Of a stretch of 64,000 bases of DNA, positions 22,679-35,521 are shown in pieces; the stretch's first letter is position 1, and each line of letters opens with the position of its first letter. The stretch is from Dehalococcoidia bacterium. GTDB taxonomy: Bacteria; Chloroflexota; Dehalococcoidia; Bin125. The position numbers and the translations under genes are program-made. The DNA lies in assembly GCA_963662615.2 (NCBI GenBank), contig CAXXSR010000001.1, positions 1,696,001-1,760,000 of the forward strand, in the 5' to 3' direction. The notes below the pieces were generated by a model. It was not told the origin of the DNA and ran no database searches. It saw only the letters and a program-made list of their open reading frames with translations.

Positions 22679-24766
22679 TCACCTGATTGCCGTGCGAACC
22701 AAGATGAGTTGGTCGGCGGCGGACTCGGGCGCCCAGACCTCCCCGGGCCGGCCGAGGATCTGGCGAACGTTCCCCGGAGTGCTGGGGAGGGGAAGGGTGG
22801 TGAAGGACTCGGTCCCAGGATCGAAGCGGTGGAGCGCGTTGCCACCGAAATCGCTCACCCAGATGATGTCGTCGGCGTCCACGAAGACCGCGTAGGCCTT
22901 TGCTGCTTCGCCGGGAAGCGGCCACTCCTGCCACGTCTCATCTGCCGGGTCAAAGCGGGCGAGTTGACCGGCGTTCCATTCGCTGACCCAGATGCGGCCC
23001 AGGGAGTCGGACCAGACGCGACGCGCCCCTTGGTTCGGCGTAGGCGGCTCGAGCACAGTGACCGCTCCAGATTCGAGATCGATGCGGCCCAGGTAACTCC
23101 CGGCGAGGGAAGCGAAATAGACTTGGCCGTCCGGCGTATTGGTGATTCCGTAGGGGCCCCGGCCGCGCGGCGTATCGAAGACGTCCATGTCGCCGGTTGC
23201 GGGATCGAGCCGACCAATGACTCCGTTTTGGCCCGTGAACCAGATGCGCCCCTCGCCATCGAACGTCGCCGTATTGAGATTGGCGCCGGATCTGTCGGCG
23301 GGGAGGGGAAACACCTCGACGGCATCGGTCTCTGGATCGACGCGGACGATGGCATTGAGGCCGCCGTCCGTGATCCAGGGGGCGCCGTCGGGGCCGACGA
23401 TCACGCCGTGCGGGCGCGAGCCGGCGCCGAGAGGGATATGGCGGGTAGCGCCGGTGACGGGATCGAGCCAGCCCAGCGCTCCCGCCCCTTGGGCGGCGTA
23501 CCAGACGCCGCCGTCGGCGGCCGGGGCCACATCATGCGGCCGCGATCCCGCCGGGACGGGGAACGCGTCGATCACCAGCTCCTCGGCCGGGATCGGAGAC
23601 AGCGCCCGCGCCTGGGGAGCGGCCGTCCCCGCCGGGAGGAACTTGTGCACCACGTTGTTCCCGGTATCGGCGAGATAGATGGCCCCGTCCAGGCCGGTGG
23701 CGGTGCCGTGGGGGAAGCGCAAAGGGGCGTCGGAGGGGAAGAGCCCGAGCCGACTTCCCTCCGCGTCGAAGGCTAGGACCTGGCCGTCGCCGGGACCGGC
23801 GAGGTACCAACCGCCGCCCGGGATCGCTGAGATGATCTGCGGGTCGGACAGTCCGAGGTCGTCGTAGATCGCCAGCGGCTCGCCCTCCGGGCTGAACTTC
23901 TGCACGCGCTTGTTGCCCGTATCGACGACCAAGACGTTGCCGTTCACGTCCAGATCGAGCCCGATCGGGCGGAGCAGCTGCCCCGGCGCGGACCCGCGTT
24001 CTGCGAAGCTGAAGAGGAACACACCCGCGGTCGTGAACACTTGGACGCGGTTGTTGCCGAAGTCCGCAACGTACACGCGGCCGTCAGAGCTGATGTCGAT
24101 ACCCATCGCGGACAGGAACTGTCCAGGTCCGTTCCCGTCCCTCCCCCAGCTCGTGACCAGCTCCCCGTCCGCAGTGAATTTTTGCACCCGGTGCGCGCCC
24201 GACTCCGCCACGTAGACGAAGCCATCCGCGTCTACGGCGATCCCCGTCGGGGCCAGGAGTTGCCCGGGCTCCGAGCCCGTACAGCCCCAGCGCGCCAGCT
24301 CGTCGCCGTCGGGGGCGAACTTGAAGACGCGGCCGCCGCTAAACTCGGTCAGATAGACGTTGCCGTCGGGCCCGATGTCGATCTGGTTCGGCCTGTCGAA
24401 GTCGCCGTTCTCGCCCCACACGGCGACCTGCACAATGTCGAGCGCCGGGAGAACCTGCGCCCGCGCGGGCTCCGCGGCTTCCTCCGCTTCCTCCGCTTCC
24501 TCCGCTTCCTCCGCGTCCGCCCCGGGCGCTGTGGTCTCGGCTACGTTCGTGGTGCCCGCCGACGTGTCATCCTCCGCTTGCTCCGCGTCGATCGGCTGAG
24601 ACTCGTCGCTCGGTGTCGCCTGTGCAGCCGGGGCTGCCGGAGGCTTCGGCTCGCTGCCGGAGCCTCCGCAGGCGGCCGTAAGTAGCGCAACGAGGGCCAT
24701 CGCCCCGACGAGCGGACCCAGCCTTCCCTCCCCAAGCCGGCTCAAGGCTCTTTGCACGTCTAACAT
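22679..24766 (-). CDS. Lipoprotein with an NHL-repeat propeller fused to a Vgb-like (virginiamycin B lyase family) propeller
   Basis: Lipobox LTAAC, NHL repeats (PTGIAVDADGFVYVAESGAHRVQKF), Vgb-like blades (PHDVAPAADGGVWY, PYGITNTPDGQVYF). Confidence 0.85.
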   Translation of the reverse strand: MLDVQRALSRLGEGRLGPLVGAMALVALLTAACGGSGSEPKPPAAPAAQATPSDESQPIDAEQAEDDTSAGTTNVAETTAPGADAEEAEEAEEAEEAAEPARAQVLPALDIVQVAVWGENGDFDRPNQIDIGPDGNVYLTEFSGGRVFKFAPDGDELARWGCTGSEPGQLLAPTGIAVDADGFVYVAESGAHRVQKFTADGELVTSWGRDGNGPGQFLSAMGIDISSDGRVYVADFGNNRVQVFTTAGVFLFSFAERGSAPGQLLRPIGLDLDVNGNVLVVDTGNKRVQKFSPEGEPLAIYDDLGLSDPQIISAIPGGGWYLAGPGDGQVLAFDAEGSRLGLFPSDAPLRFPHGTATGLDGAIYLADTGNNVVHKFLPAGTAAPQARALSPIPAEELVIDAFPVPAGSRPHDVAPAADGGVWYAAQGAGALGWLDPVTGATRHIPLGAGSRPHGVIVGPDGAPWITDGGLNAIVRVDPETDAVEVFPLPADRSGANLNTATFDGEGRIWFTGQNGVIGRLDPATGDMDVFDTPRGRGPYGITNTPDGQVYFASLAGSYLGRIDLESGAVTVLEPPTPNQGARRVWSDSLGRIWVSEWNAGQLARFDPADETWQEWPLPGEAAKAYAVFVDADDIIWVSDFGGNALHRFDPGTESFTTLPLPSTPGNVRQILGRPGEVWAPESAADQLILVRTAIR
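24477..24512. repeat. (GCTTCCTCC)x4 coding tandem repeat (EEA linker)
   Basis: Four exact 9-mers. Confidence 0.85.
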
Positions 24767-25788
24767 CGCGCCGCCGCACCCGTCGCCGAGTCCGGCGGGC
24801 TGCCCGCGGCGAGGCGGTACGCATAGTCCATGGCGGAGGTCATATTGGCCGGGTTGGCGATCCCCTGGCCGGCGATGTCGAATGCCGTGCCGTGATCCAC
24901 GGAGGTGCGGATGATGGGCAAGCCGACGGTGACGTTGACGCCTTCGTCGAACGCCAACAGTTTCATCGGCACGTGTCCCTGGTCGTGGTACATCACGACG
25001 ACGACGTCCCAGCGGCCCTCATAGGCCTGGCGGATTGCGGCATCGGCCGGCAGCGGCCCCGCGACTTGCATTCCCTCGCGCACGGCCTCTTCGCAGGCGG
25101 GGCGGATTTCATCTTCGTCCTCGTTGCCGAAGAGCCGGGATTCGCCCGCGTGGGGGTTCAAGCCGCAGACTCCGATCCCGGGTTCCGGGACGCCGAGTTG
25201 TTTGAGGTGGTGGTGCGCAGCCCTGATCGTCTCGAGGATGCGTTCGCGCTTGACCATCTTGACCGCCTGGGCAATGGAGACGTGGGTGCTGACATGGATG
25301 ACGCGGAGCTTCGGGGAGCCCAAGAGCATGAAGTAGTTGCGCGTGCCACAGAGATGTCCGAGGAGGCCGGTGTGCCCGTCAAACTTGTGGCCGGCGACGT
25401 GCAGGGCCTCTTTGTTCAGCGGAGCCGTGACGATTGCGTCGATGCCGCCGGCGAGGGCGAGCTCTGCGGCGCGCACGACGTACTGGTAGGCCGCTTCGCC
25501 GTGGTAGGCCGCAACCTTTCCGGTCTGGACCCGCAAAGGGTCGCAGTTTTCGATGTGCACCACATCGATCGAGCCTTTTTGCGGCGAAGCATCGGCGGGG
25601 TCGCCAATCGCGCGGACGGTCCAGCCGGGAACCCACGCCTCCGCCGCTCCCCGCACCACGCGGGCGTCGCCTACGACCAGAGGGCGGGAGCGCTGGCGCT
25701 CAATTTCTCCCGGCAGCGCCTTGACGGTGACTTCGGGGCCGATCCCCGCCGGGTCACCAATGGTTATGCCGATGACGGGATGGGTCAT
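24760..25788 (-). CDS. pdxA: 4-hydroxythreonine-4-phosphate / D-threonate-4-phosphate dehydrogenase (PdxA2-type)
   Basis: GDPAGIGPE, TAPLNKE, GHT, LNPHAGE, MYHDQGH, RTSVDHGTAFDIAG. Adjacent to a DUF1537 kinase. Confidence 0.93.
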   Translation of the reverse strand: MTHPVIGITIGDPAGIGPEVTVKALPGEIERQRSRPLVVGDARVVRGAAEAWVPGWTVRAIGDPADASPQKGSIDVVHIENCDPLRVQTGKVAAYHGEAAYQYVVRAAELALAGGIDAIVTAPLNKEALHVAGHKFDGHTGLLGHLCGTRNYFMLLGSPKLRVIHVSTHVSIAQAVKMVKRERILETIRAAHHHLKQLGVPEPGIGVCGLNPHAGESRLFGNEDEDEIRPACEEAVREGMQVAGPLPADAAIRQAYEGRWDVVVVMYHDQGHVPMKLLAFDEGVNVTVGLPIIRTSVDHGTAFDIAGQGIANPANMTSAMDYAYRLAAGSPPDSATGAAARC

Positions 25789-27083
25789 CTTGGTGTGTTC
25801 GGCAGGGATCCCAGGTAGGTGAGCAGCCTGGAGATGGTGTGGTCGTCTCCGAATGCCCCGGCTTTGGTGGCAATCACGGTGCCGTCAAGCTCACCGCCGT
25901 CGATGATGCCGGCCGGTACTCCCGGCAATGGCTCGGCGCGGAGAACGATACCACGAGCACGAACGGCGGCCAGGACTCCCAGAGCAGTATCTCCGCCAAT
26001 GATGACCAGTGCCGCGGGTGGCCTGCTCAAGAGCGAGGGACCGATCAGGCGACCCAACATTTCGGTGAGGCGGCTGGCGCCCGTCCGCATCGCCTGTGGT
26101 GAGATGCTGGTGGAGGGGAACGTGAGCCGCGCCCGCATGGCCGAGGGCCTGGGTGCGGGAGCAGATCGCCCGTCGGGATCAGGAGCATCGTCGCCGTCGA
26201 CGGTGACGTTGCCGGACGCGTCCATCGTGAATCGGATCGTGTGAACGGTGAGGCCGTGCGAGTCTTCCGCGGCGGAGAGTTGGCGGTCAACCAAGTCTCG
26301 CTGACTGGCCGTGACGACGAGCACTTGCCCACTCTCGGGCGCCGGGTTCGGTGGCGTGGCCGGCGCGGGAGAGGCAGGAACCTGGCGTGCGAGCGCGGCC
26401 GCGAGGCCGGCAGAGCCGGCGAACAAGATCTTCCCGCCATCCGCCGCAAGTCCGGCGGCGGCGAGTGCTGTGAGGTCGCTTTCGGTTTCTGCGTCGCAGA
26501 CGAGCACTGAGCTGGCGCTGTCGGCGGCAGAGGCAAGGATGGCCGGCAGCCGCGCAGAGCGGACGTCGGCCAGGGGCAGCTCAGTGACCGGCAGAGAGCA
26601 GTCCAGGCGCAGGACATCGGCGACCCTGTCGAACGGCACTGGCGAGAGCGGGTCTTTGCCGACATCGGTTTCGGTCACAAGTCTGCCATCCACGCGAAGG
26701 AGGCCACCGGAAACGGTCCGCCCGTTTTCCGGGAAGGCAGGGGTTGCCACGGTGCATTTCGCCCCCAGTGCCCGGGCGGCGGCGGCGATCTCACAGCCCG
26801 GGTGGCCGCGCATCGTGGAGTCGACTTTTACGTAGGTGACGGCAGGCTGCAGCGCGGCGACTGTCGCGGCCGACGCGGCGGCTACGGGCCCGGCTTGGTT
26901 GGGTGGGAGACGGCGAGTGTCCAGGTTGAGCGAAAGAGCGCCTCGTGGGGTGGGAGGGAGTTCGGGGCCGATTGCGACATACACCGGGTGCGCCCTGCCC
27001 AGAAACGTGGCCGCGCAGTCGACGGCGCCGGTGAGGTCGTCTGCCAGCACTGCGATATTGAGCCTGTCATCAGTGTCGGCCAT
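25785..27083 (-). CDS. Four-carbon acid sugar kinase (DUF1537, DtnK/DenK family)
   Basis: LADDLTGAVD, KVDSTMRGH, PAFPENGR, GSAGLA, GGDTA, TKAGAFG. Confidence 0.92.
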   Translation of the reverse strand: MADTDDRLNIAVLADDLTGAVDCAATFLGRAHPVYVAIGPELPPTPRGALSLNLDTRRLPPNQAGPVAAASAATVAALQPAVTYVKVDSTMRGHPGCEIAAAARALGAKCTVATPAFPENGRTVSGGLLRVDGRLVTETDVGKDPLSPVPFDRVADVLRLDCSLPVTELPLADVRSARLPAILASAADSASSVLVCDAETESDLTALAAAGLAADGGKILFAGSAGLAAALARQVPASPAPATPPNPAPESGQVLVVTASQRDLVDRQLSAAEDSHGLTVHTIRFTMDASGNVTVDGDDAPDPDGRSAPAPRPSAMRARLTFPSTSISPQAMRTGASRLTEMLGRLIGPSLLSRPPAALVIIGGDTALGVLAAVRARGIVLRAEPLPGVPAGIIDGGELDGTVIATKAGAFGDDHTISRLLTYLGSLPNTPR

Positions 27084-27321
27084 GCGCATAAGTTATACGG
27101 CGTGCCGGTCCACTCATGGCAGCGACACCGGCAGGATCGACAGAAGCATCTTCCCCAGCCCCAGGCCGAGCAGTGCTTCCGCCAGGAGTGTGCGCCATGT
27201 GCCGGAGGGTTCGTTCATGGCGTCTCCTCGTCGCACTTGGGACGAGGCGAGGGTGCGCGGTCCAGCACCGAGATCCGCCAGAGCCAACGACCTCTGGTCG
27301 GGCGCATACAATTGAGAAGCG

Positions 27322-28479
27322 ATGGCCACCAAGGGAGACGAGAGCGCGGGATCTACTGATCGCTCGCTGTTGCAAGCGATGAGCGATGCCATCTTGGCGA
27401 TGGCAGCCGAGCCCCGGATCGAGCGAATTCTTCAGGGCCTGGTGGAGAGCGCCGGGGCACTGGTTAACGCCCGCTACGCCGCGCTCGGCATCCCCGACGA
27501 CGAGGGCGATGGCTTCGCCAGCTTCATCTACACCGGCATGAGCGACGAGCTGGTCGCCAAGATCGGCCCGCTGCCTCGGAGGCATGGACTGCTTGGCGCC
27601 ATGCTGCGCGAGACGCGGCCCTTTCGCTCGTCCGACATCGGCAAGGATCCCCGGTTTCAATGGTGGCCGGAGGCTCACCCGCAGATGTCGTCGTTCCTTG
27701 GCGTGCCGATCGTCTCCCAAGGGAACGTGATCGGAGCGTTTTACCTGACGGACAAGATGGAGGCGGAGACGTTCTCCGAAACGGACCAAAAGACCATTGA
27801 GATGCTCGCCGCTCACGCCGCGGTCGCCATAGAGAACGCGCGGCTGTACGAGCGGAGCCGAGAGGCGTCCGTGATTGAAGAGCGGAATCGCCTGGCCCGT
27901 GAGCTCCACGACTCCGTGTCCCAAACCCTCTTCGGCATTGCGCTGACCGCTGAGGCCGCTGCGACCACGGTCGACGAAGAGCCGCACGTCGCCAAGAGGC
28001 AGCTTGAAACCCTCCGCGATTCCGCCCGCGCTGCGCATCACGAGATGCGATCTCTCATCTTTGAGCTGCGCCCGGCGGCACTGGAGTCGGATGGGTTGGT
28101 CCCGACGCTGCGGAAGCATGTCGACGTGTTGCGGCGGGTCACGCACAAGGAGATCGAGCTGCGGGACGCGGACTACACGCGTCAGCCTCCCAAGATTGAG
28201 GGCGAAGCGTTCCGCATCCTCCAAGAGGCGCTGAATAACGCCGTGCAGCACTCATCGGCCAGCCGCATCGAGATTGAGTTGGTCGTGCAGAGCGGACGCC
28301 TGCGGATCGCCGTATCCGACGACGGCATCGGCTTCCAGGCGAGCGATCCGCGAATCAGGGGCCGCCGCCTTGGCATCACGTCCATGGAAGAGCGAGCCGA
28401 AGGCCTGGGGGGCCATCTCCACATCGCCTCGGCAGTTGGCGGCGGGACGCGCGTCGAACTGGAGGTCCCCGTTGACTGA
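27322..28479 (+). CDS. Cytoplasmic GAF-domain sensor histidine kinase (HisKA_3)
   Basis: GAF segment (HPQMSSFLGVPI..FYLTDK), ERNRLARELHDSVSQ, QEALNNAVQHS, DDGIGF. No TM. Confidence 0.93.
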   Translation: MATKGDESAGSTDRSLLQAMSDAILAMAAEPRIERILQGLVESAGALVNARYAALGIPDDEGDGFASFIYTGMSDELVAKIGPLPRRHGLLGAMLRETRPFRSSDIGKDPRFQWWPEAHPQMSSFLGVPIVSQGNVIGAFYLTDKMEAETFSETDQKTIEMLAAHAAVAIENARLYERSREASVIEERNRLARELHDSVSQTLFGIALTAEAAATTVDEEPHVAKRQLETLRDSARAAHHEMRSLIFELRPAALESDGLVPTLRKHVDVLRRVTHKEIELRDADYTRQPPKIEGEAFRILQEALNNAVQHSSASRIEIELVVQSGRLRIAVSDDGIGFQASDPRIRGRRLGITSMEERAEGLGGHLHIASAVGGGTRVELEVPVD

Positions 28480-29122
28480 CACGATTAGCGTCCTGGTGGT
28501 CGATGACCATGCGGTCGTGCGCCAGGGTCTGCGAGCGTTCCTTGACGTCCAGGATGACATCGAGATCGTGGGCGAAGCGGCGGATGGGGATGAGGCGATT
28601 CGGCAGGTGCAGGAGTTGGTGCCCGACGTGGTCCTGATGGACCTCGTCATGCCAAAACTCGATGGTATCAGCGCGATTCGCGAGCTCCGTTCCCGCAGCC
28701 CATCGACCAAGGTGATCGCACTGACCACCTTCGCCGACGACGAGAAGCTGTTCGCCGCCGTGAAGGCGGGGGCCGCCGGCTACCTGCTGAAGGACGTCCA
28801 CCCTCAGCAGCTCGGCGAAGCGATCCGGAGCGTCCATCGCGGCGAAGCGCCTCTCCACCCCACGGTCGCCGCCAAGTTGATGCGAGAGGTCGCTGAGCCA
28901 CGCCGCCGTGCGGACGCTCCAGACGCTCTCACCCCGCGTGAGCTCGAGGTGCTCGGGCTCATCGCCCAGGGCAAGTCCAATAAGGAAATCGCCCTGGAGC
29001 TGCGAGTCGCGGAGAAAACCGTCAAGACCCACGTCAGCAACGTGCTGCAGAAGCTGCACCTGGCCGATCGCACCCAGGCCGCGCTCTACGCCGTTCGCGA
29101 GCACTTGGCGGATCTGGATTAG
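28472..29122 (+). CDS. NarL/LuxR family response regulator
   Basis: VVDDHAVVRQG, VLMDLVMP, LTPRELEVL..GKSNKEIA..TVKTHVSN. TTG start overlaps the kinase stop. Confidence 0.93.
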   Translation: MTDTISVLVVDDHAVVRQGLRAFLDVQDDIEIVGEAADGDEAIRQVQELVPDVVLMDLVMPKLDGISAIRELRSRSPSTKVIALTTFADDEKLFAAVKAGAAGYLLKDVHPQQLGEAIRSVHRGEAPLHPTVAAKLMREVAEPRRRADAPDALTPRELEVLGLIAQGKSNKEIALELRVAEKTVKTHVSNVLQKLHLADRTQAALYAVREHLADLD

Positions 29123-29195
29123 CTCTTCCCCCAGAGGTCGTCCTTCTTCGTCGGCCTCGCCCTTCGTCTCCCTGTGCGCTCCAGGCAACACAGCA

Positions 29196-29209
29196 CCCTA
29201 GGACTAGGG
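29196..29209. promoter_or_regulatory. Palindrome upstream of the SDR gene; candidate response-regulator site
   Basis: CCCTAG-GA-CTAGGG in the RR-SDR intergenic region. Confidence 0.4.
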
Positions 29210-29307
29210 CGAATTACCGACGCCGCGTGCGTCCGCGGTCCGATGTGGCGGGAATGCCGTCTTCCTAGATTGCAACTACACAGGTTGGTTGACCAAGGAG
29301 AACAGTC

Positions 29308-30024
29308 ATGAAACTTGAAAGACGTGTCGCTTTGGTGACTGGAGCCTCGCGCGGCCTGGGGCTCGAGATCGCCAGGGCCTACGCAGGCCGCGGCGCGAAG
29401 TTGGTGATCGCGGCACGAGGCGGGGACAGGCTCGCGGCTGCAGCTGCAGAACTGGAGCGCCGCACTGAGGTCGCTGCGCTCACGCTGGACGTTTCCGAGG
29501 ACGCCGAGCAGTTGGTGGAAGCCGGACTGCGACGCTTCGGGCGCATCGACGTGCTCGTGAACAACGCCTCCGACCTCGGCCCAAGCCCAATGCCCCCCCT
29601 GGATCAGTACCCGTGGCAAGCGCTGCAGCGCGTGCTCAAGGTGAATGTGTTGGCGCCGCTGCATCTGACGCAGTTGGTCCTGCCGGGCATGCGAGCGCGA
29701 GGGGAGGGCGTCATCATCAACGTCACCTCGGACGCTGGAGTTGCGGCCTACCCGGGCTGGGGCGGCTACGGCGCCAGCAAGGCGGCGCTCGAACACATAT
29801 CGCGGACCCTGGGCAACGAGCTTAAGGGGACCGGCGTTCGCGTCTACCTCGTGGACCCCGGCGACATGAACACGGCGATGCACCGACTGGCGGAGCCGGG
29901 CGTCAACCTCTCAGCCCTGCCCGGCCCCGAGGTCGCGGCGCCGGCCTTCGTTCGACTCGTGGAGGACGAGACGGCGCCGTTCGCGCGCGTAGAGGCACAG
30001 GCGCTTGTCGCGCCGAAGCACTAA
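29308..30024 (+). CDS. SDR family oxidoreductase
   Basis: TGASRGLG, NNAS, YGASK, DPGDMNT. AAGGAG RBS. Confidence 0.92.
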   Translation: MKLERRVALVTGASRGLGLEIARAYAGRGAKLVIAARGGDRLAAAAAELERRTEVAALTLDVSEDAEQLVEAGLRRFGRIDVLVNNASDLGPSPMPPLDQYPWQALQRVLKVNVLAPLHLTQLVLPGMRARGEGVIINVTSDAGVAAYPGWGGYGASKAALEHISRTLGNELKGTGVRVYLVDPGDMNTAMHRLAEPGVNLSALPGPEVAAPAFVRLVEDETAPFARVEAQALVAPKH

Positions 30025-30037
30025 GGAGAGACCGACA

Positions 30038-31075
30038 ATGCTTAGTACAATCGAGCGCCCCCAACACCGCCTCGAGTCGCTTGACTTCACGCTCCCACCG
30101 TCGCTGGAAGCCCGCGAGCCTCCAGAGGCGCGCGGGCTTGCGCGCGACGACGTACGGCTCCTGGTGAGCTATCGAGAGGACGACCGCGTCGTCGACACCA
30201 CCTTTCGCGACCTCCCACGGCTCTTGCATCCCGGTGACCTGATCGTCGTCAACGATTCCGCCACGCTCCCGGCAGCGCTCAGCGTCCTGCGAGACGACGG
30301 CAGCCAGCTCGCGCTCCACCTTTCCACGCAGCTCGCCCCAGATGAGTGGGTCGTCGAGCCGCGACACGCCGCGGTGCGGGAGGGCGAGATCCTCGAGCTG
30401 CCGGGCAGAGCGACGGCTCGCCTCCTGGCAACGTACCGCGGATCGAGCCGCCTGTGGGTGGCGCAACTGGCCCTGCCGGCCTCGCTCAGTGCCTACCTCC
30501 ACACCTGGGGCCGGCCGATCTCGTACCCCTACGTGGAGCGCGACTGGCCGCTGGAGGCATATCAGACGGTCTTCGCGAGTCGGCCGGGGTCGGCGGAGAT
30601 GCCCTCGGCTGGGCGCGCGTTGAGCGCCCGCACGCTCGAGGCGCTCGCCGATCGGGGCGTGGCGGTGCGGGCGATTACGTTGCACACCGGTGTCGCGAGC
30701 CCTGAGGCGGACGAGCCGCCGTCCGCAGAGTGGTTCGCGGTCTCAGACGAGACGGCTGCCGCGATCCGCTCTGCCAGGGCGCGGCACAGTCGCGTGGTGG
30801 CGGTGGGCACGACCGTCGTTCGGGCGGCGGAGTCCGCCGCGGACGACAACGGCGACGTGCGGGGCTTGTCCGGCTGGACCGATCTCGTGATCACGCCCGA
30901 ACGGGGCGCCGCCTCGATCGACGCGCTCCTCACGGGATTCCATGAGCCGCGCGCAAGTCATCTGCAGATGCTCGAGGCGATTGCGGGCCGCCGCCACATT
31001 CAGGTCGCGTATGCCCACGCCCTGGACCGCGGATACCTCTGGCATGAGTTCGGCGACCTGCACCTGATCCTCTGA
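30038..31075 (+). CDS. QueA-like protein (SAM:tRNA ribosyltransferase-isomerase family, divergent paralog)
   Basis: LDFTLP, GDLIVVNDS, YQTVFA, AVGTTVVR and GFHEP fit the QueA fold, but the canonical signature motifs are altered. Confidence 0.85.
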   Translation: MLSTIERPQHRLESLDFTLPPSLEAREPPEARGLARDDVRLLVSYREDDRVVDTTFRDLPRLLHPGDLIVVNDSATLPAALSVLRDDGSQLALHLSTQLAPDEWVVEPRHAAVREGEILELPGRATARLLATYRGSSRLWVAQLALPASLSAYLHTWGRPISYPYVERDWPLEAYQTVFASRPGSAEMPSAGRALSARTLEALADRGVAVRAITLHTGVASPEADEPPSAEWFAVSDETAAAIRSARARHSRVVAVGTTVVRAAESAADDNGDVRGLSGWTDLVITPERGAASIDALLTGFHEPRASHLQMLEAIAGRRHIQVAYAHALDRGYLWHEFGDLHLIL

Positions 31076-31091
31076 CAGAGCATCGTCTCCT

Positions 31092-31524
31092 GGTTCTGTC
31101 AGATCGCAGGGCGCGCGAGCTTCGCGTAGCCTCGCCCATGACGCGACGAGGAGACGCCGATGCGCTGACCGCGCTGTCGTGCGACCGCCACGACCACACG
31201 GAAGCGCGCGACATCGCTGCAACTAACATTTGAACAGCTGGATTGCGCAGGATCAGCGGGCCAGCAAGCAGCGCCCCTTCTCCCTGCGTGGGTTCGGGAG
31301 TTTCGCCTCAGCTGCCCAGTTCTGCGCGGCCTTCGATGCGCTGCGCCAGGACGTCCCCGTACGGCCCCGCTCCGGCCTCCCGATCCCGTTAGCGACGCAG
31401 CGCCGGCTGTTCGTCGCCCGTTGGCGGTCCCTGATCCTGGTGATGCTGGCCGCGTAGGACACCATCGGCCGTCGCCGGATCACCACGCTTCGTTTGTCCC
31501 GCTGCCTTCAGATCTGAGAGAACC
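31092..31524 (+). mobile_element. Internally deleted IS6-family element with 14-bp terminal inverted repeats and a transposase C-terminal relic
   Basis: GGTTCTGTCAGATC (31092-31105) / GATCTGAGAGAACC (31511-31524, 1 mismatch). The internal NSWIAQDQRASKQR..RGFGSFASAAQFC resembles IS6 NNRIEQDHR..KQR..GF. Confidence 0.8.
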
Positions 31525-31575
31525 GGCCAGGCCGACCACTGTAGGATTCCGGACAAGCGCGAAAGGGGGAGACCA

Positions 31576-32787
31576 ATGGCAGAGATCAAGGTCTATGGAG
31601 CGCCGTGGTGCCCAGATTGCCGACGGACGAAGGCGTTCCTGGCCGAGCACCACACGCCGTACGACTGGATCGACATCGACGAGGACGCCGCCAGTCTTCG
31701 CTATGTGGAGGATCTGCAGAACGGCGGTCATAGCATTCCTACCGTCGTCTTCGCGGACGGCAGTTTCCTGGTCGAACCGTCGAATGAGGAGGTCGCGAGC
31801 AAGCTGGGCCTGGCCCTGGAACCAGAGCGGTCGTCCTACGACCTGGCGATCGTCGGCGGGGGGCCAGCGGGCCTGGCGGCGGCGATCTACGCGGCGCGCG
31901 AGGGCATGGATACGGTGGTCATTGAGAAGAGCGGCTTGGGCGGACAGGCCGGCGTGACCGAACGGATCGACAATTACCCGGGCTTTCCGGACGGCATTGG
32001 CGGCGGTGAGCTGGCGGATCGCTTCGTGGCTCAGGCTCAGCGCTACGGGGTGGAGCTGCTCTCGGCGGTGGGCGTTACGAAGATTGAGAAGGACGGCGAG
32101 GAAGTGGAGCTACGGCTCAGCACCGGCGCCGCCGTCTGCGCCCACGCGGCGATCGTGGCGACGGGCGCATCGTACCGGCGCCTGGGCCTCCCCGGCGAGG
32201 ACGATCTGATTGGCGCCGGCGTCCACTTCTGCGCCACCTGTGACGGCCCCTTCTACAAAGGCGCGGAGGAGTTGCTGGTCATCGGCGGTGGCAACTCCGC
32301 GCTTGAAGAGGGCCTCTTCCTCTCCCAATTCGCGCAACGCATCCGGATCGTGGAGTTCAATCCGGCGCTGAAGGCGTCGCAACTGCTGCAGGATAAGGTG
32401 CGTGCCCATCCGCAATTCGTGGTGCACACGAACACGGAGGTGACGGCGCTGCGCGGCCGCGCCGGCAAGCTCAGCGAAGTCGTGGCGCGGGACCGCGCCA
32501 CAGGCGAGGAGATGCGCTGGACCCCTGCCGCCGCCTTCGTCTTCATTGGCCTCACGCCGAACAGCGGCTTTCTCAATGGCGCGGTGCGGCTGGACCGGTG
32601 GGGATTCATTGAGAGCGATGCCGTCTTCGAGTCGTCGCTGCCTGGGCTGTTTGTGGCGGGCGACGTGCGGGCCGGCTCCACCAAGCAGTTAGGGTCGGCG
32701 GTGGGAGACGGCATCGCGGCGCTGCTGCACGTGCGGGAATACCTCAAAGAGCACGCGCATGTGAGTCGCACGTCGGTGAACGCGTGA
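31576..32787 (+). CDS. trxB: Glutaredoxin/mycoredoxin-like domain fused to thioredoxin reductase
   Basis: N-terminal WCPDC..SIPTV, then GGGPAGL, CATCDG, GGGNSA, AGDVR. Confidence 0.9.
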   Translation: MAEIKVYGAPWCPDCRRTKAFLAEHHTPYDWIDIDEDAASLRYVEDLQNGGHSIPTVVFADGSFLVEPSNEEVASKLGLALEPERSSYDLAIVGGGPAGLAAAIYAAREGMDTVVIEKSGLGGQAGVTERIDNYPGFPDGIGGGELADRFVAQAQRYGVELLSAVGVTKIEKDGEEVELRLSTGAAVCAHAAIVATGASYRRLGLPGEDDLIGAGVHFCATCDGPFYKGAEELLVIGGGNSALEEGLFLSQFAQRIRIVEFNPALKASQLLQDKVRAHPQFVVHTNTEVTALRGRAGKLSEVVARDRATGEEMRWTPAAAFVFIGLTPNSGFLNGAVRLDRWGFIESDAVFESSLPGLFVAGDVRAGSTKQLGSAVGDGIAALLHVREYLKEHAHVSRTSVNA

Positions 32788-32853: not shown

Positions 32854-33993
32854 TCACTGTGCCACGAAGGTGCGGCTAACGTCGTTGACGATCACCGTGT
32901 ATTCCGTACCGGAAACGAAATCCGTGCCCAGGGGCACGTTGTGTTCCACTGTGCGGAAAATGTCGATGCAGGCGATCTCCGCCTCCGGCGCGGGCACGAG
33001 ATTCCAGACATCGATGCGGATGGTCGTGTCCTCACGAGTGACGTCATTGCGGTCGAACTCCGCGCAGCCGTCCGGCAGGATGGAGACAATGTGTGCAAAA
33101 TACTGCGGCGGAAACGACTCCGCCACGATCACCTCAAGCGATTGGATGGGCGCGAGCGCCGAAACCGTCGGAAACGGATCGCCACTTGCGGGGATCGTGA
33201 CGGGGAAGAAGTACAACGCGTCGCCCGTCAAGGGGACGCCGTTCGCGGCCGCGCCCCCCAGATCCCCCCACGCCGCGAACACGCTCAGGATGTAGTCGCC
33301 TGGATCGATAGTCGGTGTCCATGTGAGGTCCGGGCCGCCCGTATCGAAGGTGGTGCTCACGCCCGTGCCGACCTGGTCTGGCGTGGATAGGTTCAGGAAC
33401 ACCGAACCGGGGATCGGCTGGTCCCAGCGGAGGCGCACGAGGCCGTCCGGGAGGGGGATGAACGAATCGACGGCGGGGAAGAAAGGTGGGGAATCAGCGC
33501 ACAGCCCAATTCCCTGGACCAGGTCCGCGGGCCAGCAATAGCTGCCGCGCTCGGGCTCGTGGATCTGGTCTCCCACCAGGAGCCGCACGGCGGGTGGACT
33601 TGACGGGAGGCCCGCCGCCCCCGCGGGCGGGAAGCTCCACGTGCGGTCGCTCTGCACGAAGATGAAGTACGGTCGGCCGTGCTCGAGATCGGTGAAGCCC
33701 TGCAGCGCCGACGGGAGCAGCGGCGACTAGAGCAGCCAGGCCTGGCCGACGTTGTCGAACGACCAGATCACGTTGACCCACTCGCGGATGTCATTCAGGG
33801 CCGCGTCGACGGGCAACGTGGGGCCGCCATAGGTCACCAGGTTGCCGCCGTTCACCATGTCCACCGTGGAAGGCTCATGGCCGGCGCTGGCCACGTCCCT
33901 CTGCGACCAGGCGGCAAGAAGAACGGCGCCGGCGACCAACGCACAAGAGACAGCCGCAAAGACGAAGGTCCGCTTGGGTCGAACTGCTGTCAT
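32854..33993 (-). pseudogene. Secreted multi-domain protein interrupted by an in-frame TAG at 33727-33729
   Basis: The signal-peptide ORF 33727..33993 and ORF 32854..33657 are in the same frame. Readthrough gives WLL*SPLLPSALQGFTDLEHGRPYFIFV. C-terminal AESFPPQY..LPDGC domain. Confidence 0.7.
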
Positions 33994-34081
33994 GGGCGAA
34001 TCATCCTCTCGATTCGCGACCCGGACACATCCAGAGGCCGCCGGGCGAGGCGAAAGCGATCGTGTCCTCGCGCACCTCGCG

Positions 34082-35521
34082 TCATGTCAGCTCCATCAGG
34101 GGCGGCTCCGGCGGAATCTCAATGGGACAGCCGGTGGCGCCCCGGACGTCCGCCGGGGTGACCCCGGGGGCGATCTCGCGCAGCACGAGGCCATCCGGCG
34201 TCACATCGATGAGGGCAAGGTTCGTGACGATCGTCGAGACGCACCCTGCTCCGGTGAGAGGGTAGCTGCACCGCGAGACCAGGCGCGGCTCTCCGCTGGA
34301 GGTCGTGTGCTCCATCAAGACAATGACGGGGACGCGGCCGGCGATCAGGTCCATGGCGCCGCCAATGCCACCGATTCCGGCGCCGGGCAGGCGCCAGTTG
34401 GCGAGGTCGCCGGCTGCGGAGACCTGGAAGGCGCCCAGGACGATCGCGTCGAGATGGCCGCCGCGCGCCATGGCGAAGGCGACCGTGCTGTCGAAGGCCG
34501 CGGCGCCGGCCACGGGGGCAACGGGCTGCCCACCGGCGTTGTAGTAGTTGGGGTCCCAGGCGTTCAGATCGTCGACACTGACGTAACCGTAGAGCCCGTT
34601 TTCCGCGTGGAGGAGCGCGGGCGCGCCCACTTCGTCGAGCCAGCCGCCGACGAGCGTCGGCAAGCCGATGCCCAGATTAACGGAGCGGTAGCCGGCGCCG
34701 GCGATGATGCGGGCCACACGGAGCGCCATGAGGTCGCGGGGCAGGCCGGCGATCTCGCGCGGGGCTCTATCGCCCCGCGTCGGGTCACGGCCCAGCGCGA
34801 ACACCTCCGCCATGACCTCCTCACGCGGGATCTCCTCCCGCACCACACGGTCCACGTAGATTCCGGGGACGTGGATCGCCTCTGGCGCCAGGCTGCCGCT
34901 GGGAACGATCTCCTCGACCTCGGCAACAACCGTGTCAGCGGCGGTGGCCATGGCGACATTGAAGTTTTGGCCCACTCCGGAAACCGTGAGATTGCCAAGT
35001 TCGTCCGCCCGCGTGGCGCGCAGGAGGGCGAAGTCCGCCCGCAGCGCCGATTCCAGCAGGTGAGGGCGGCCGTTGAAAACGCGCTTCTCTTTCTCCGCGG
35101 TGTCGGCAATGGTGGCCACCCCGGTCGGCGTGTAGAACGCGGCGATGCCCGCCCCGCCCGCGCGGATGCGCTCCACGAACGTTCCCTGAGGGACAAGCTC
35201 AACCTCCAGCTTGCCCGCCAGCATCTGATCTTCAGAAGCGGTCTTGCGGCCAAGGAAGCTGCCAAACGATCCAATGAATCTTCGGATCAGCTCTCGCTCG
35301 GCCAGGACTTGCGGTGAATAGCGGCCGAAACCGAGAGTGTTGGCGATGATCGTGAGCTCGCCGGCCCCGTGGCCGGCGAGCGCTTGCAGCAGGGTATTGG
35401 GCCAGCCGTGAATGACGGCGAACCCCCCCACCATGACTGCCATCCCCGGCTCAACGTCGCGCACCGCGTCTGCCGCGGTAGCCACGACCTTCGACTCCAC
35501 GGTCGCTCCCTCCGCGGCCAT
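34082..35521 (-). CDS. Fused alpha/beta 3-oxoacid CoA-transferase (family I)
   Basis: VMVGGF, PQGTFVERIRAGGAGI, IHVPGIYVD, VNLGIGLP, catalytic AENG, GIGGAMDL. Confidence 0.92.
   Translation of the reverse strand: MAAEGATVESKVVATAADAVRDVEPGMAVMVGGFAVIHGWPNTLLQALAGHGAGELTIIANTLGFGRYSPQVLAERELIRRFIGSFGSFLGRKTASEDQMLAGKLEVELVPQGTFVERIRAGGAGIAAFYTPTGVATIADTAEKEKRVFNGRPHLLESALRADFALLRATRADELGNLTVSGVGQNFNVAMATAADTVVAEVEEIVPSGSLAPEAIHVPGIYVDRVVREEIPREEVMAEVFALGRDPTRGDRAPREIAGLPRDLMALRVARIIAGAGYRSVNLGIGLPTLVGGWLDEVGAPALLHAENGLYGYVSVDDLNAWDPNYYNAGGQPVAPVAGAAAFDSTVAFAMARGGHLDAIVLGAFQVSAAGDLANWRLPGAGIGGIGGAMDLIAGRVPVIVLMEHTTSSGEPRLVSRCSYPLTGAGCVSTIVTNLALIDVTPDGLVLREIAPGVTPADVRGATGCPIEIPPEPPLMELT

Follow-up and report, generated by a model that had tools for sequence, protein, structure and literature searches.

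QueA (EC 2.4.99.17; PF02547) is the S-adenosylmethionine (SAM):tRNA ribosyltransferase-isomerase of the queuosine pathway, which in its canonical form, as outlined in PMC5699537 and PMC6063277, leads from Tgt through QueA to QueG or QueH. A passage of PMC9092360 calls QueA 'a unique enzyme' for its SAM-derived carbocycle, PMC1282579 lists it as the ribosyl-transfer SAM enzyme, and in these two reviews it is given as the only enzyme that transfers the ribosyl part of SAM. A full-text literature search found no paper on a QueA paralog. Here we describe such a paralog (hereafter QueA-like), encoded in a 64,000-nucleotide stretch of a Dehalococcoidia genome (the window; contig CAXXSR010000001.1, positions 1,696,001–1,760,000), downstream of genes for a soluble sensor histidine kinase, a NarL-type response regulator and a short-chain dehydrogenase/reductase (SDR). 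The evidence firmly supports a distinct QueA paralog family. As to its role, we give close to an even chance to the proposal that the SDR/QueA-like pair carries out an inducible, SAM-dependent, stress-induced modification of a small molecule and not queuosine synthesis.

In overall architecture the QueA-like protein follows QueA closely: the two-domain fold is the same and the length similar, the QueA structures are matched with sequence E-values of 3e-48 to 2e-44 at ~30% identity, and both families carry the elements YQTV, GS.A.P.AG, LH.G, VGTT..R..E, FH.P and GD. The AlphaFold2 (AF2) model of the protein (pLDDT 92, pTM 0.90) gave structure matches with E ≤ 0.001 to 1yy3, 1vky and 1wdi only, and the ESM Atlas returned clusters named solely as the QueA family, with no functional lead. 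The protein scores below all three NCBIfam cut-offs for QueA (NF001140, TIGR00113 and NF002398: 202.1, 171.7 and 91.9 bits against 324, 267.45 and 588, respectively). HMMER alignments to the Thermus thermophilus (1wdi) and Bacillus subtilis (1yy3) enzymes bear out the motif replacements listed in the initial annotation, i.e. PLPPYI by PISYPYV, AAPTAGLHF by EMPSAGRAL, LHVG.GTF by LHTGVAS, NFHLP by GFHEP and YRF.S.GD by YLWHEFGD; these five canonical motifs are replaced in the window protein and throughout the QueA-like family. In the AF2 model the QueA fold is retained and the predicted pocket appears rebuilt.

A scan of species-representative genomes revealed at least 558 QueA-like relatives. 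The best 80 loci were fetched and come from Actinomycetota, Chloroflexota, Gemmatimonadota, Acidobacteriota, Latescibacterota, Deinococcota, Bacteroidota (Saprospiraceae), Eremiobacteraceae and Dormibacteria. For comparison, 78 QueA-like sequences were set beside 20 canonical ones, of which 19 are from carrier genomes with a tRNA-guanine transglycosylase (TGT) match and one is a divergent PF02547 gene that is the third copy in one of these genomes. The separation from canonical QueA that had been predicted for this protein is recovered in the family phylogeny (a quick IQ-TREE analysis, LG+G4), where a single branch with an SH-aLRT support of 100 and a combined length of ~1.66 changes per column divides the two groups. 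Both groups conserve the same residue in 47 columns, among them D67, N72, Y175, Q176, H216, E231, T258, T259, R262, E265, H302 and D340, and in 22 further columns both are conserved with different residues; because of the latter, the motif changes are family traits rather than drift. The QueA-like family also has a four-residue insert, EARG, relative to canonical QueA, and the window protein retains 26 of 26 family-specific near-invariant residues.

In roughly two out of three columns that both groups conserve, the residue is identical, so the enzyme has probably kept the ability to bind SAM and to initiate a QueA-type reaction; since specificity-type columns and many basic residues have changed, its acceptor is probably not tRNA. 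The substitutions could also be read as the recruitment of the fold for some other nucleoside or sugar derivative, with no use of SAM and possibly with a new metal site: eight conserved Glu and His residues (H94, E107, E187, E223, E303, H308, H336 and E337) have been gained at positions that are hydrophobic or basic in canonical QueA, and the AAPTAGLHF motif is rebuilt. We find this reading rather unlikely, given that the 47 identical columns include most of the polar ones.

The absence of tgt and other que genes from the neighborhood, remarked upon in the initial annotation, extends to the entire host genome (2.66 Mb in 2 contigs, 93.6% complete). It gave no match to TGT (PF01702), QueG (TIGR00276) or QueH (PF02677), and for QueC (PF06508) and QueF (PF14489) only short partial matches of ~25 bits. 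The window gene is the sole PF02547 gene of the genome, and there is no separate canonical queA. The initial annotation had held that being the only QueA would speak against a paralog; this circumstance is literally the case and yet the idea stands, because no tgt was found that could supply preQ1-tRNA. The search was extended to 24 further genomes from the family of the host, 20 of which are listed with a completeness of 90% or more and a contamination of 5% or less; none has a TGT match and none matches the QueA-like model. In other families of the class TGT is present, and most of them also match the QueA-like model, weakly (at most 215 bits versus 513 bits for the window gene), as is expected for canonical QueA. 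From the lack of matches in the 24 relatives we conclude that the cassette is an accessory element of the host lineage, probably acquired horizontally.

Of 30 carrier genomes, nine have no TGT match and only the QueA-like copy (219–278 bits on PF02547); the record of one of these nine is titled complete genome. Of the 21 TGT-positive carriers, 19 possess a second, canonical queA (307–455 bits on PF02547), which adjoins tgt in 6 genomes; the remaining two show the low-scoring copy alone and may be incomplete. The independence of the QueA-like family from tgt is thus firmly supported. The simplest alternative, an ordinary QueA whose tgt and other que genes were missed because of an incomplete assembly, could appeal to the 93.6% completeness, which leaves their absence unproven, and to the fact that the window gene is the only PF02547 gene of its genome. 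We consider it highly improbable in view of the scores below every QueA equivalog cut-off, the position outside the canonical clade, the missing TGT in all 24 family members and in eight other carriers, and the separate canonical queA found in nearly every TGT carrier. As no queuosine pathway is detectable, the pair probably uses SAM for an undescribed purpose.

Canonical queA can be placed by tgt; the QueA-like gene is instead paired or fused with an SDR gene under regulators of its own. In agreement with the suggested synteny, 73 of the 75 loci that extend 700 bp or more upstream (all except L010 and L033) have the SDR gene immediately ahead of the QueA-like gene and in the same orientation, and in 20 of the 54 loci with both genes called the QueA-like start falls on the last base of the SDR gene, depending on the choice of start codon. 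At L044:5302-7044 the two form one open reading frame (ORF) of 581 aa, and among 120 listed clusters at least 10 more combine adh_short and PF02547 in a single protein (494–814 aa, 53–100% identity; P0124-P0126, P0148, P0152, P0156, P0158, P0161, P0162 and P0181). The 814-aa fusion P0124 also bears a REC domain, perhaps through read-through of a regulator gene. These arrangements firmly support a functional tie between the QueA-like family and its own SDR. The window SDR has the features of the classical type (TGxxxGxG, NNAS and Ser-Tyr-Lys), and an alignment of 43 family members shows T11, G12, G16, G18, R37, S141, Y154 and K158 to be invariant and N85/N86 nearly so; the invariant R37 suggests that the enzyme is probably NADP(H)-dependent. 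A sequence search of the PDB with the SDR identified generic SDRs only (hydroxyacyl-CoA dehydrogenase, FabG, 7-alpha-hydroxysteroid dehydrogenase and YciK). The predicted complex of the SDR with the QueA-like protein, made with both alignments, had a score of 0.00 (mark 0.32), which weighs neither way on binding. In 8 of the 80 loci a VOC gene or domain (glyoxalase/fosfomycin-resistance fold) is found between the SDR and QueA-like genes, and in L065 and L069 the VOC domain is fused to the SDR. When the neighbors in 81 loci (the 80 and the window) were clustered, no other cluster was found in over 12 of them.

The genes ahead of the pair encode a NarL-type two-component system, as judged from the combination of a HisKA_3/HATPase_c kinase with a REC/GerE regulator. 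The kinase contains no cysteine and, lacking any hydrophobic stretch as long as 18 residues, is cytoplasmic. The closest described counterparts are presumably the NarL/DosR-type systems with cytoplasmic GAF kinases, e.g. DosS/DosT-DosR, which are alike in the soluble GAF and HisKA_3 kinase, the REC-GerE regulator and the palindromic operator upstream of the target; however, the window kinase has one GAF domain and not two as in DosS/DosT, and the presumed target of the system is a single two-gene operon, with 1–3 operator copies per genome. The proposed linkage of the kinase and regulator to the cassette was recovered by tblastn, within the fetched DNA, in 27 of 61 loci that extend 4 kb or more upstream (14 co-directional, 12 divergent, 1 downstream). 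Kinases at or above 90 bits in tblastn measure 366–401 aa in 29 of 30 related loci, and all three distant kinases tested have the same three domains. The GAF sequence is poorly conserved between the two classes into which the kinases fall and contains no invariant His or Cys in 30 kinases.

A palindrome ahead of the window SDR gene is the sole exact CCCTAG-N2-CTAGGG in the 2.66-Mb genome and shares the core CCTAGGAC with a class of palindromes (class A, GGTCCTAGGACC) that occupy the corresponding position in 13 of the 70 related loci scored; on these sequence grounds it is a candidate operator of the regulator. A second type, class B, CCTGT(A/C)C-N4-G(T/G)ACAGG, precedes the SDR gene in 25 of the 70. 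In each of the 23 loci with both an operator and an adjacent kinase, the two are of corresponding class (12 A, 11 B, none crossed). In 5 genomes the class B palindrome has 1–3 copies each, so it is a local operator and not the mark of a global regulon. Expression of the cassette from a regulated promoter region is, by such comparison of upstream sequences, firmly supported, the operators themselves being candidates.

Secondary class B sites in 3 genomes adjoin unrelated genes and outline no regulon: one neighbor codes for a major facilitator superfamily (MFS) transporter, others for another SDR (with an ORF bearing a luciferase domain), a permease of the MlaE type and a cupin. The first of these (L106:2992-3009, in the genome of L061) is directly upstream of the MFS transporter gene and beside an AhpC/TSA-like gene; in the L061 genome no kinase/regulator pair stands next to the cassette. 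Two Rubrobacteraceae loci have an ORF of 150 aa, without a Pfam match, interposed between the class B operator and the SDR gene (L029:4276-4725 and L082:4285-4734). The window palindrome recurs with a single mismatch, as CCCTAGGACTTGGG, at G000:C1:1564440 (position 2941 of L105, outside the window), where it is flanked by another HisKA_3 kinase/NarL regulator operon and a REC-only gene. Two further groups of imperfect class A matches were noticed: on G000:C1 a ~22-bp stretch with a two-mismatch match recurs at nine sites (2886, 923081, 923777, 930911, 936460, 1422950, and in reverse 681630, 1192093, 1192921), one copy having one base changed, which suggests a multi-copy element or gene family, and at G000:C2:114439-114540 five matches with at most two mismatches, three of them adjacent, lie on a 15-bp lattice, which suggests a tandem repeat.

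GAF domains bind small ligands, and in the 27 loci with the pair the would-be synthase genes and the sensor are adjacent and have a common promoter region. One may therefore ask whether the SDR and the QueA-like enzyme could make a SAM-ribose-derived signal that the GAF kinase senses by way of autoinduction, an idea to which the class B operator in front of the MFS transporter gene in one genome could be added. It is an improbable one: 34 of the 61 loci have no adjacent kinase, the GAF sequence differs widely between the kinase classes, no conserved exporter was found among the genes downstream of the cassette, and the SoxR, ArsR-like or LysR regulators present elsewhere are a better fit to an external cue.

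With the kinase/regulator pair absent from those 34 loci and neither operator class present in 32 of the 70 scored, the two-component system is one of several controls of the enzyme pair. An AACAAGG-N4-CCTTGTT-type palindrome precedes the SDR gene in 6 loci (two with 1 mismatch, one with 2). A gene for an ArsR-like helix-turn-helix (HTH) protein stands directly after the QueA-like gene in 2 of the loci scanned, and its cluster follows in 5. A LysR gene is present in L076. L074 carries, divergent from the SDR/QueA-like pair, a gene for a SoxR protein that has the C-terminal cysteine motif, and a SoxR-box-like palindrome, TTCAAGT-TC-ACTTGAA, is situated 66 bp before the SDR start; L041 has a palindrome of the same type. 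SoxR controls oxidoreductase and transporter genes of non-enteric bacteria, and L074 resembles such systems, unlike the window, where control falls to the GAF kinase and its regulator; an adjacent SoxR was found in 1 of the 80 loci and none in the window.

Because other lineages employ SoxR, ArsR-like or LysR regulators and some add a VOC domain, we take a small molecule of redox-active or electrophilic character to be the most likely acceptor, which the cassette would modify or detoxify when induced by stress; the varied dedicated sensors (one SoxR included), the occasional VOC protein and the accessory distribution make such a role the most likely one. A possible course of events is as follows. 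Some cytoplasmic ligand or redox cue would act on the GAF domain of the soluble kinase, which would phosphorylate the NarL-type regulator; a dimer of the latter would bind the palindrome and switch on the SDR/QueA-like bicistron. The QueA-like enzyme would deprotonate C5' of SAM, release adenine and open the ring to a vinyl sulfonium, then accept a nucleophile other than preQ1-tRNA and free methionine, so that the acceptor would be left with a ribose-derived C5 carbocycle. The NADP(H)-using SDR might prepare the acceptor, e.g. by reducing a carbonyl or quinone to the nucleophile, or alternatively process a hydroxyl or ketone of the product. By analogy with QueG and QueH, redox enzymes that are likewise tied to a QueA-type enzyme, the SDR may have a follow-up role; the folds are unrelated, QueG being described in PMC5699537 and PMC6063277 as a B12/Fe-S enzyme and QueH as a DUF208 protein.

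A modification of nucleic acid on another acceptor, such as a base of tRNA, rRNA or DNA that has a primary aminomethyl group and is not preQ1, would leave it to the SDR, and to the VOC protein if present, to act on the polymer-bound epoxy-carbocycle as substitutes for QueG or QueH. The fold and the 47 conserved columns held in common with the tRNA enzyme are consistent with this, as is the canonical follow-up redox enzyme, which according to the account in PMC5699537 acts on tRNA-bound epoxyqueuosine (oQ). The charged residues can be cited for either side: of 13 conserved Arg/Lys columns of canonical QueA, five are kept in the QueA-like family, but seven are lost and one is charge-reversed, and the median isoelectric points (pI) of 5.8 for the QueA-like and 6.5 for the canonical group are similar and do not separate the two. 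Dedicated inducible regulators would be unusual for a housekeeping modification of nucleic acids, the cassette is accessory (no match in any of the 24 same-family genomes), and no recurrent nucleic-acid-binding domain or partner is seen in the neighborhoods. We therefore regard a polymeric acceptor as unlikely.

Against the preferred small-molecule role itself there are, besides the isoelectric points, which leave room for a nucleic-acid acceptor, several observations to be set. SAM use is deduced from the fold and the conserved columns only, and none of the three solved relatives found (1vky, 1yy3 and 1wdi) is a SAM-containing QueA structure. Relative to its own family, the window protein differs only in the AG(R)PF motif, two positions of which are changed: it has GRAL where the other members have GRPF, with Leu for the nearly invariant F195. 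Downstream of the QueA-like gene, gene content varies from locus to locus (HAD/ACT phosphatase, ArsR-like HTH, CHAT, prolyl oligopeptidase, DUF885, YceI, superoxide dismutase and others), so there is no third conserved partner that would point to the product. The loci that lack an adjacent kinase/regulator pair, and those with neither operator class, count here as well; moreover, operator and kinase class both follow phylogeny, and their agreement is for that reason not an independent proof of binding. Finally, the redox/electrophile reading rests on one verified SoxR locus and weak neighborhood hints.

The coordinates of the cassette and of the genes around it are collected in Table 1.

Table 1. 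Genes and candidate operator of the SDR/QueA-like cassette and flanking genes (positions in the window)
Feature	Coordinates	Strand	Description
Soluble sensor histidine kinase	27322..28479	+	385 aa; GAF_2 33-171, HisKA_3 187-254, HATPase_c 296-384 (Pfam)
NarL/LuxR-type response regulator	28472..29122	+	REC 108.7 bits, GerE 78.6 bits (Pfam)
Candidate operator palindrome CCCTAG-GA-CTAGGG	29196..29209	.	112 bp before SDR ATG
Classical SDR	29308..30024	+	238 aa; adh_short 170.5 bits (Pfam); AAGGAG precedes ATG 29308
QueA-fold paralog (QueA-like)	30038..31075	+	345 aa; PF02547 260 bits
NHL-repeat/Vgb-lyase-like beta-propeller protein	22679..24766	-	695 aa
PdxA-family dehydrogenase overlapping four-carbon acid-sugar kinase	24760..27089	-	PF04166, 344 bits; SBD_N/NBD_C
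Glutaredoxin/mycoredoxin-like domain fused to thioredoxin-reductase-like flavoprotein	31576..32787	+	500 bp downstream of QueA-like gene
ORF	32854..33657	-	267 aa; no Pfam/NCBIfam match
ORF	33842..35317	+	491 aa; no Pfam/NCBIfam match

The four genes at 27322-31075 are co-oriented on the + strand, and their coordinates and gene calls had been given correctly in the initial annotation. The regulator starts with TTG at 28472, preceded by GGAGG and overlapping the kinase stop by 8 nt, and is separated from the SDR gene by 185 bp. The PF02547 match covers residues 24-355 of the 356-aa ORF that opens at the in-frame TTG 30005 and profile positions 2-322 of 322; the start is more likely ATG 30038, 13 bases past the SDR stop, as an AAGGAG overlaps that stop and most listed homologs are 334–352 aa long. 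Named NCBIfam models were missed by the kinase (NarX, MadS, MctS and LiaS; best score 117 bits against a cut-off of 500) and by the regulator (MadR 186.6 versus 300, NarL 182.4 versus 250, and also MctR). In PADLOC neither the kinase nor either enzyme of the pair matched a defense model, and the regulator gave weak matches to CARF and SduA models alone (18–37 bits). A scan of 26900-31700 for sigma-70 promoters and terminators found none. The stretch is present in 20 sequencing runs from 7 studies, with no RNA run listed, and the runs are silent on expression.

Divergent from the kinase gene, the overlapping dehydrogenase and kinase look like a threonate/erythronate-type catabolic pair: the PdxA-family protein is above the TIGR00557 cut-off and below the D-threonate 4-phosphate dehydrogenase model, while the best NCBIfam match of the acid-sugar kinase, D-threonate kinase, is also below its cut-off. 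The glutaredoxin-flavoprotein fusion has no match of 50 bits or more in the 80 related loci. The two ORFs that follow it may not be real frames in this high-GC DNA.

Taken to its full extent, the proposal is that the pair constitutes a widespread, horizontally mobile, stress-induced pathway that would graft a SAM-derived cyclopentane or epoxide onto a small molecule, so that the rare chemistry of the SAM ribosyl group would have a second use outside tRNA; in this form we put it forward as tentative, with distinctly less than even probability. The QueA-like proteins, where they are named in listings, are called 'S-adenosylmethionine:tRNA ribosyltransferase-isomerase', and because they bear the QueA name, homolog-based surveys of queuosine, such as the one reported in PMC6063277, could count the paralog as QueA; this systematic mis-annotation would be corrected. 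The defined operators and regulators offer direct handles on the inducer and the product. A distinct and strongly conserved paralog family, of which species-representative genomes contain at least 558 members, would add a new branch to SAM enzymology. A non-tRNA use of the ribosyl part of SAM, if true, would mean either that metabolites or signals of a new class are made from SAM or that toxins of a redox-active or electrophilic nature are inactivated in a new way.

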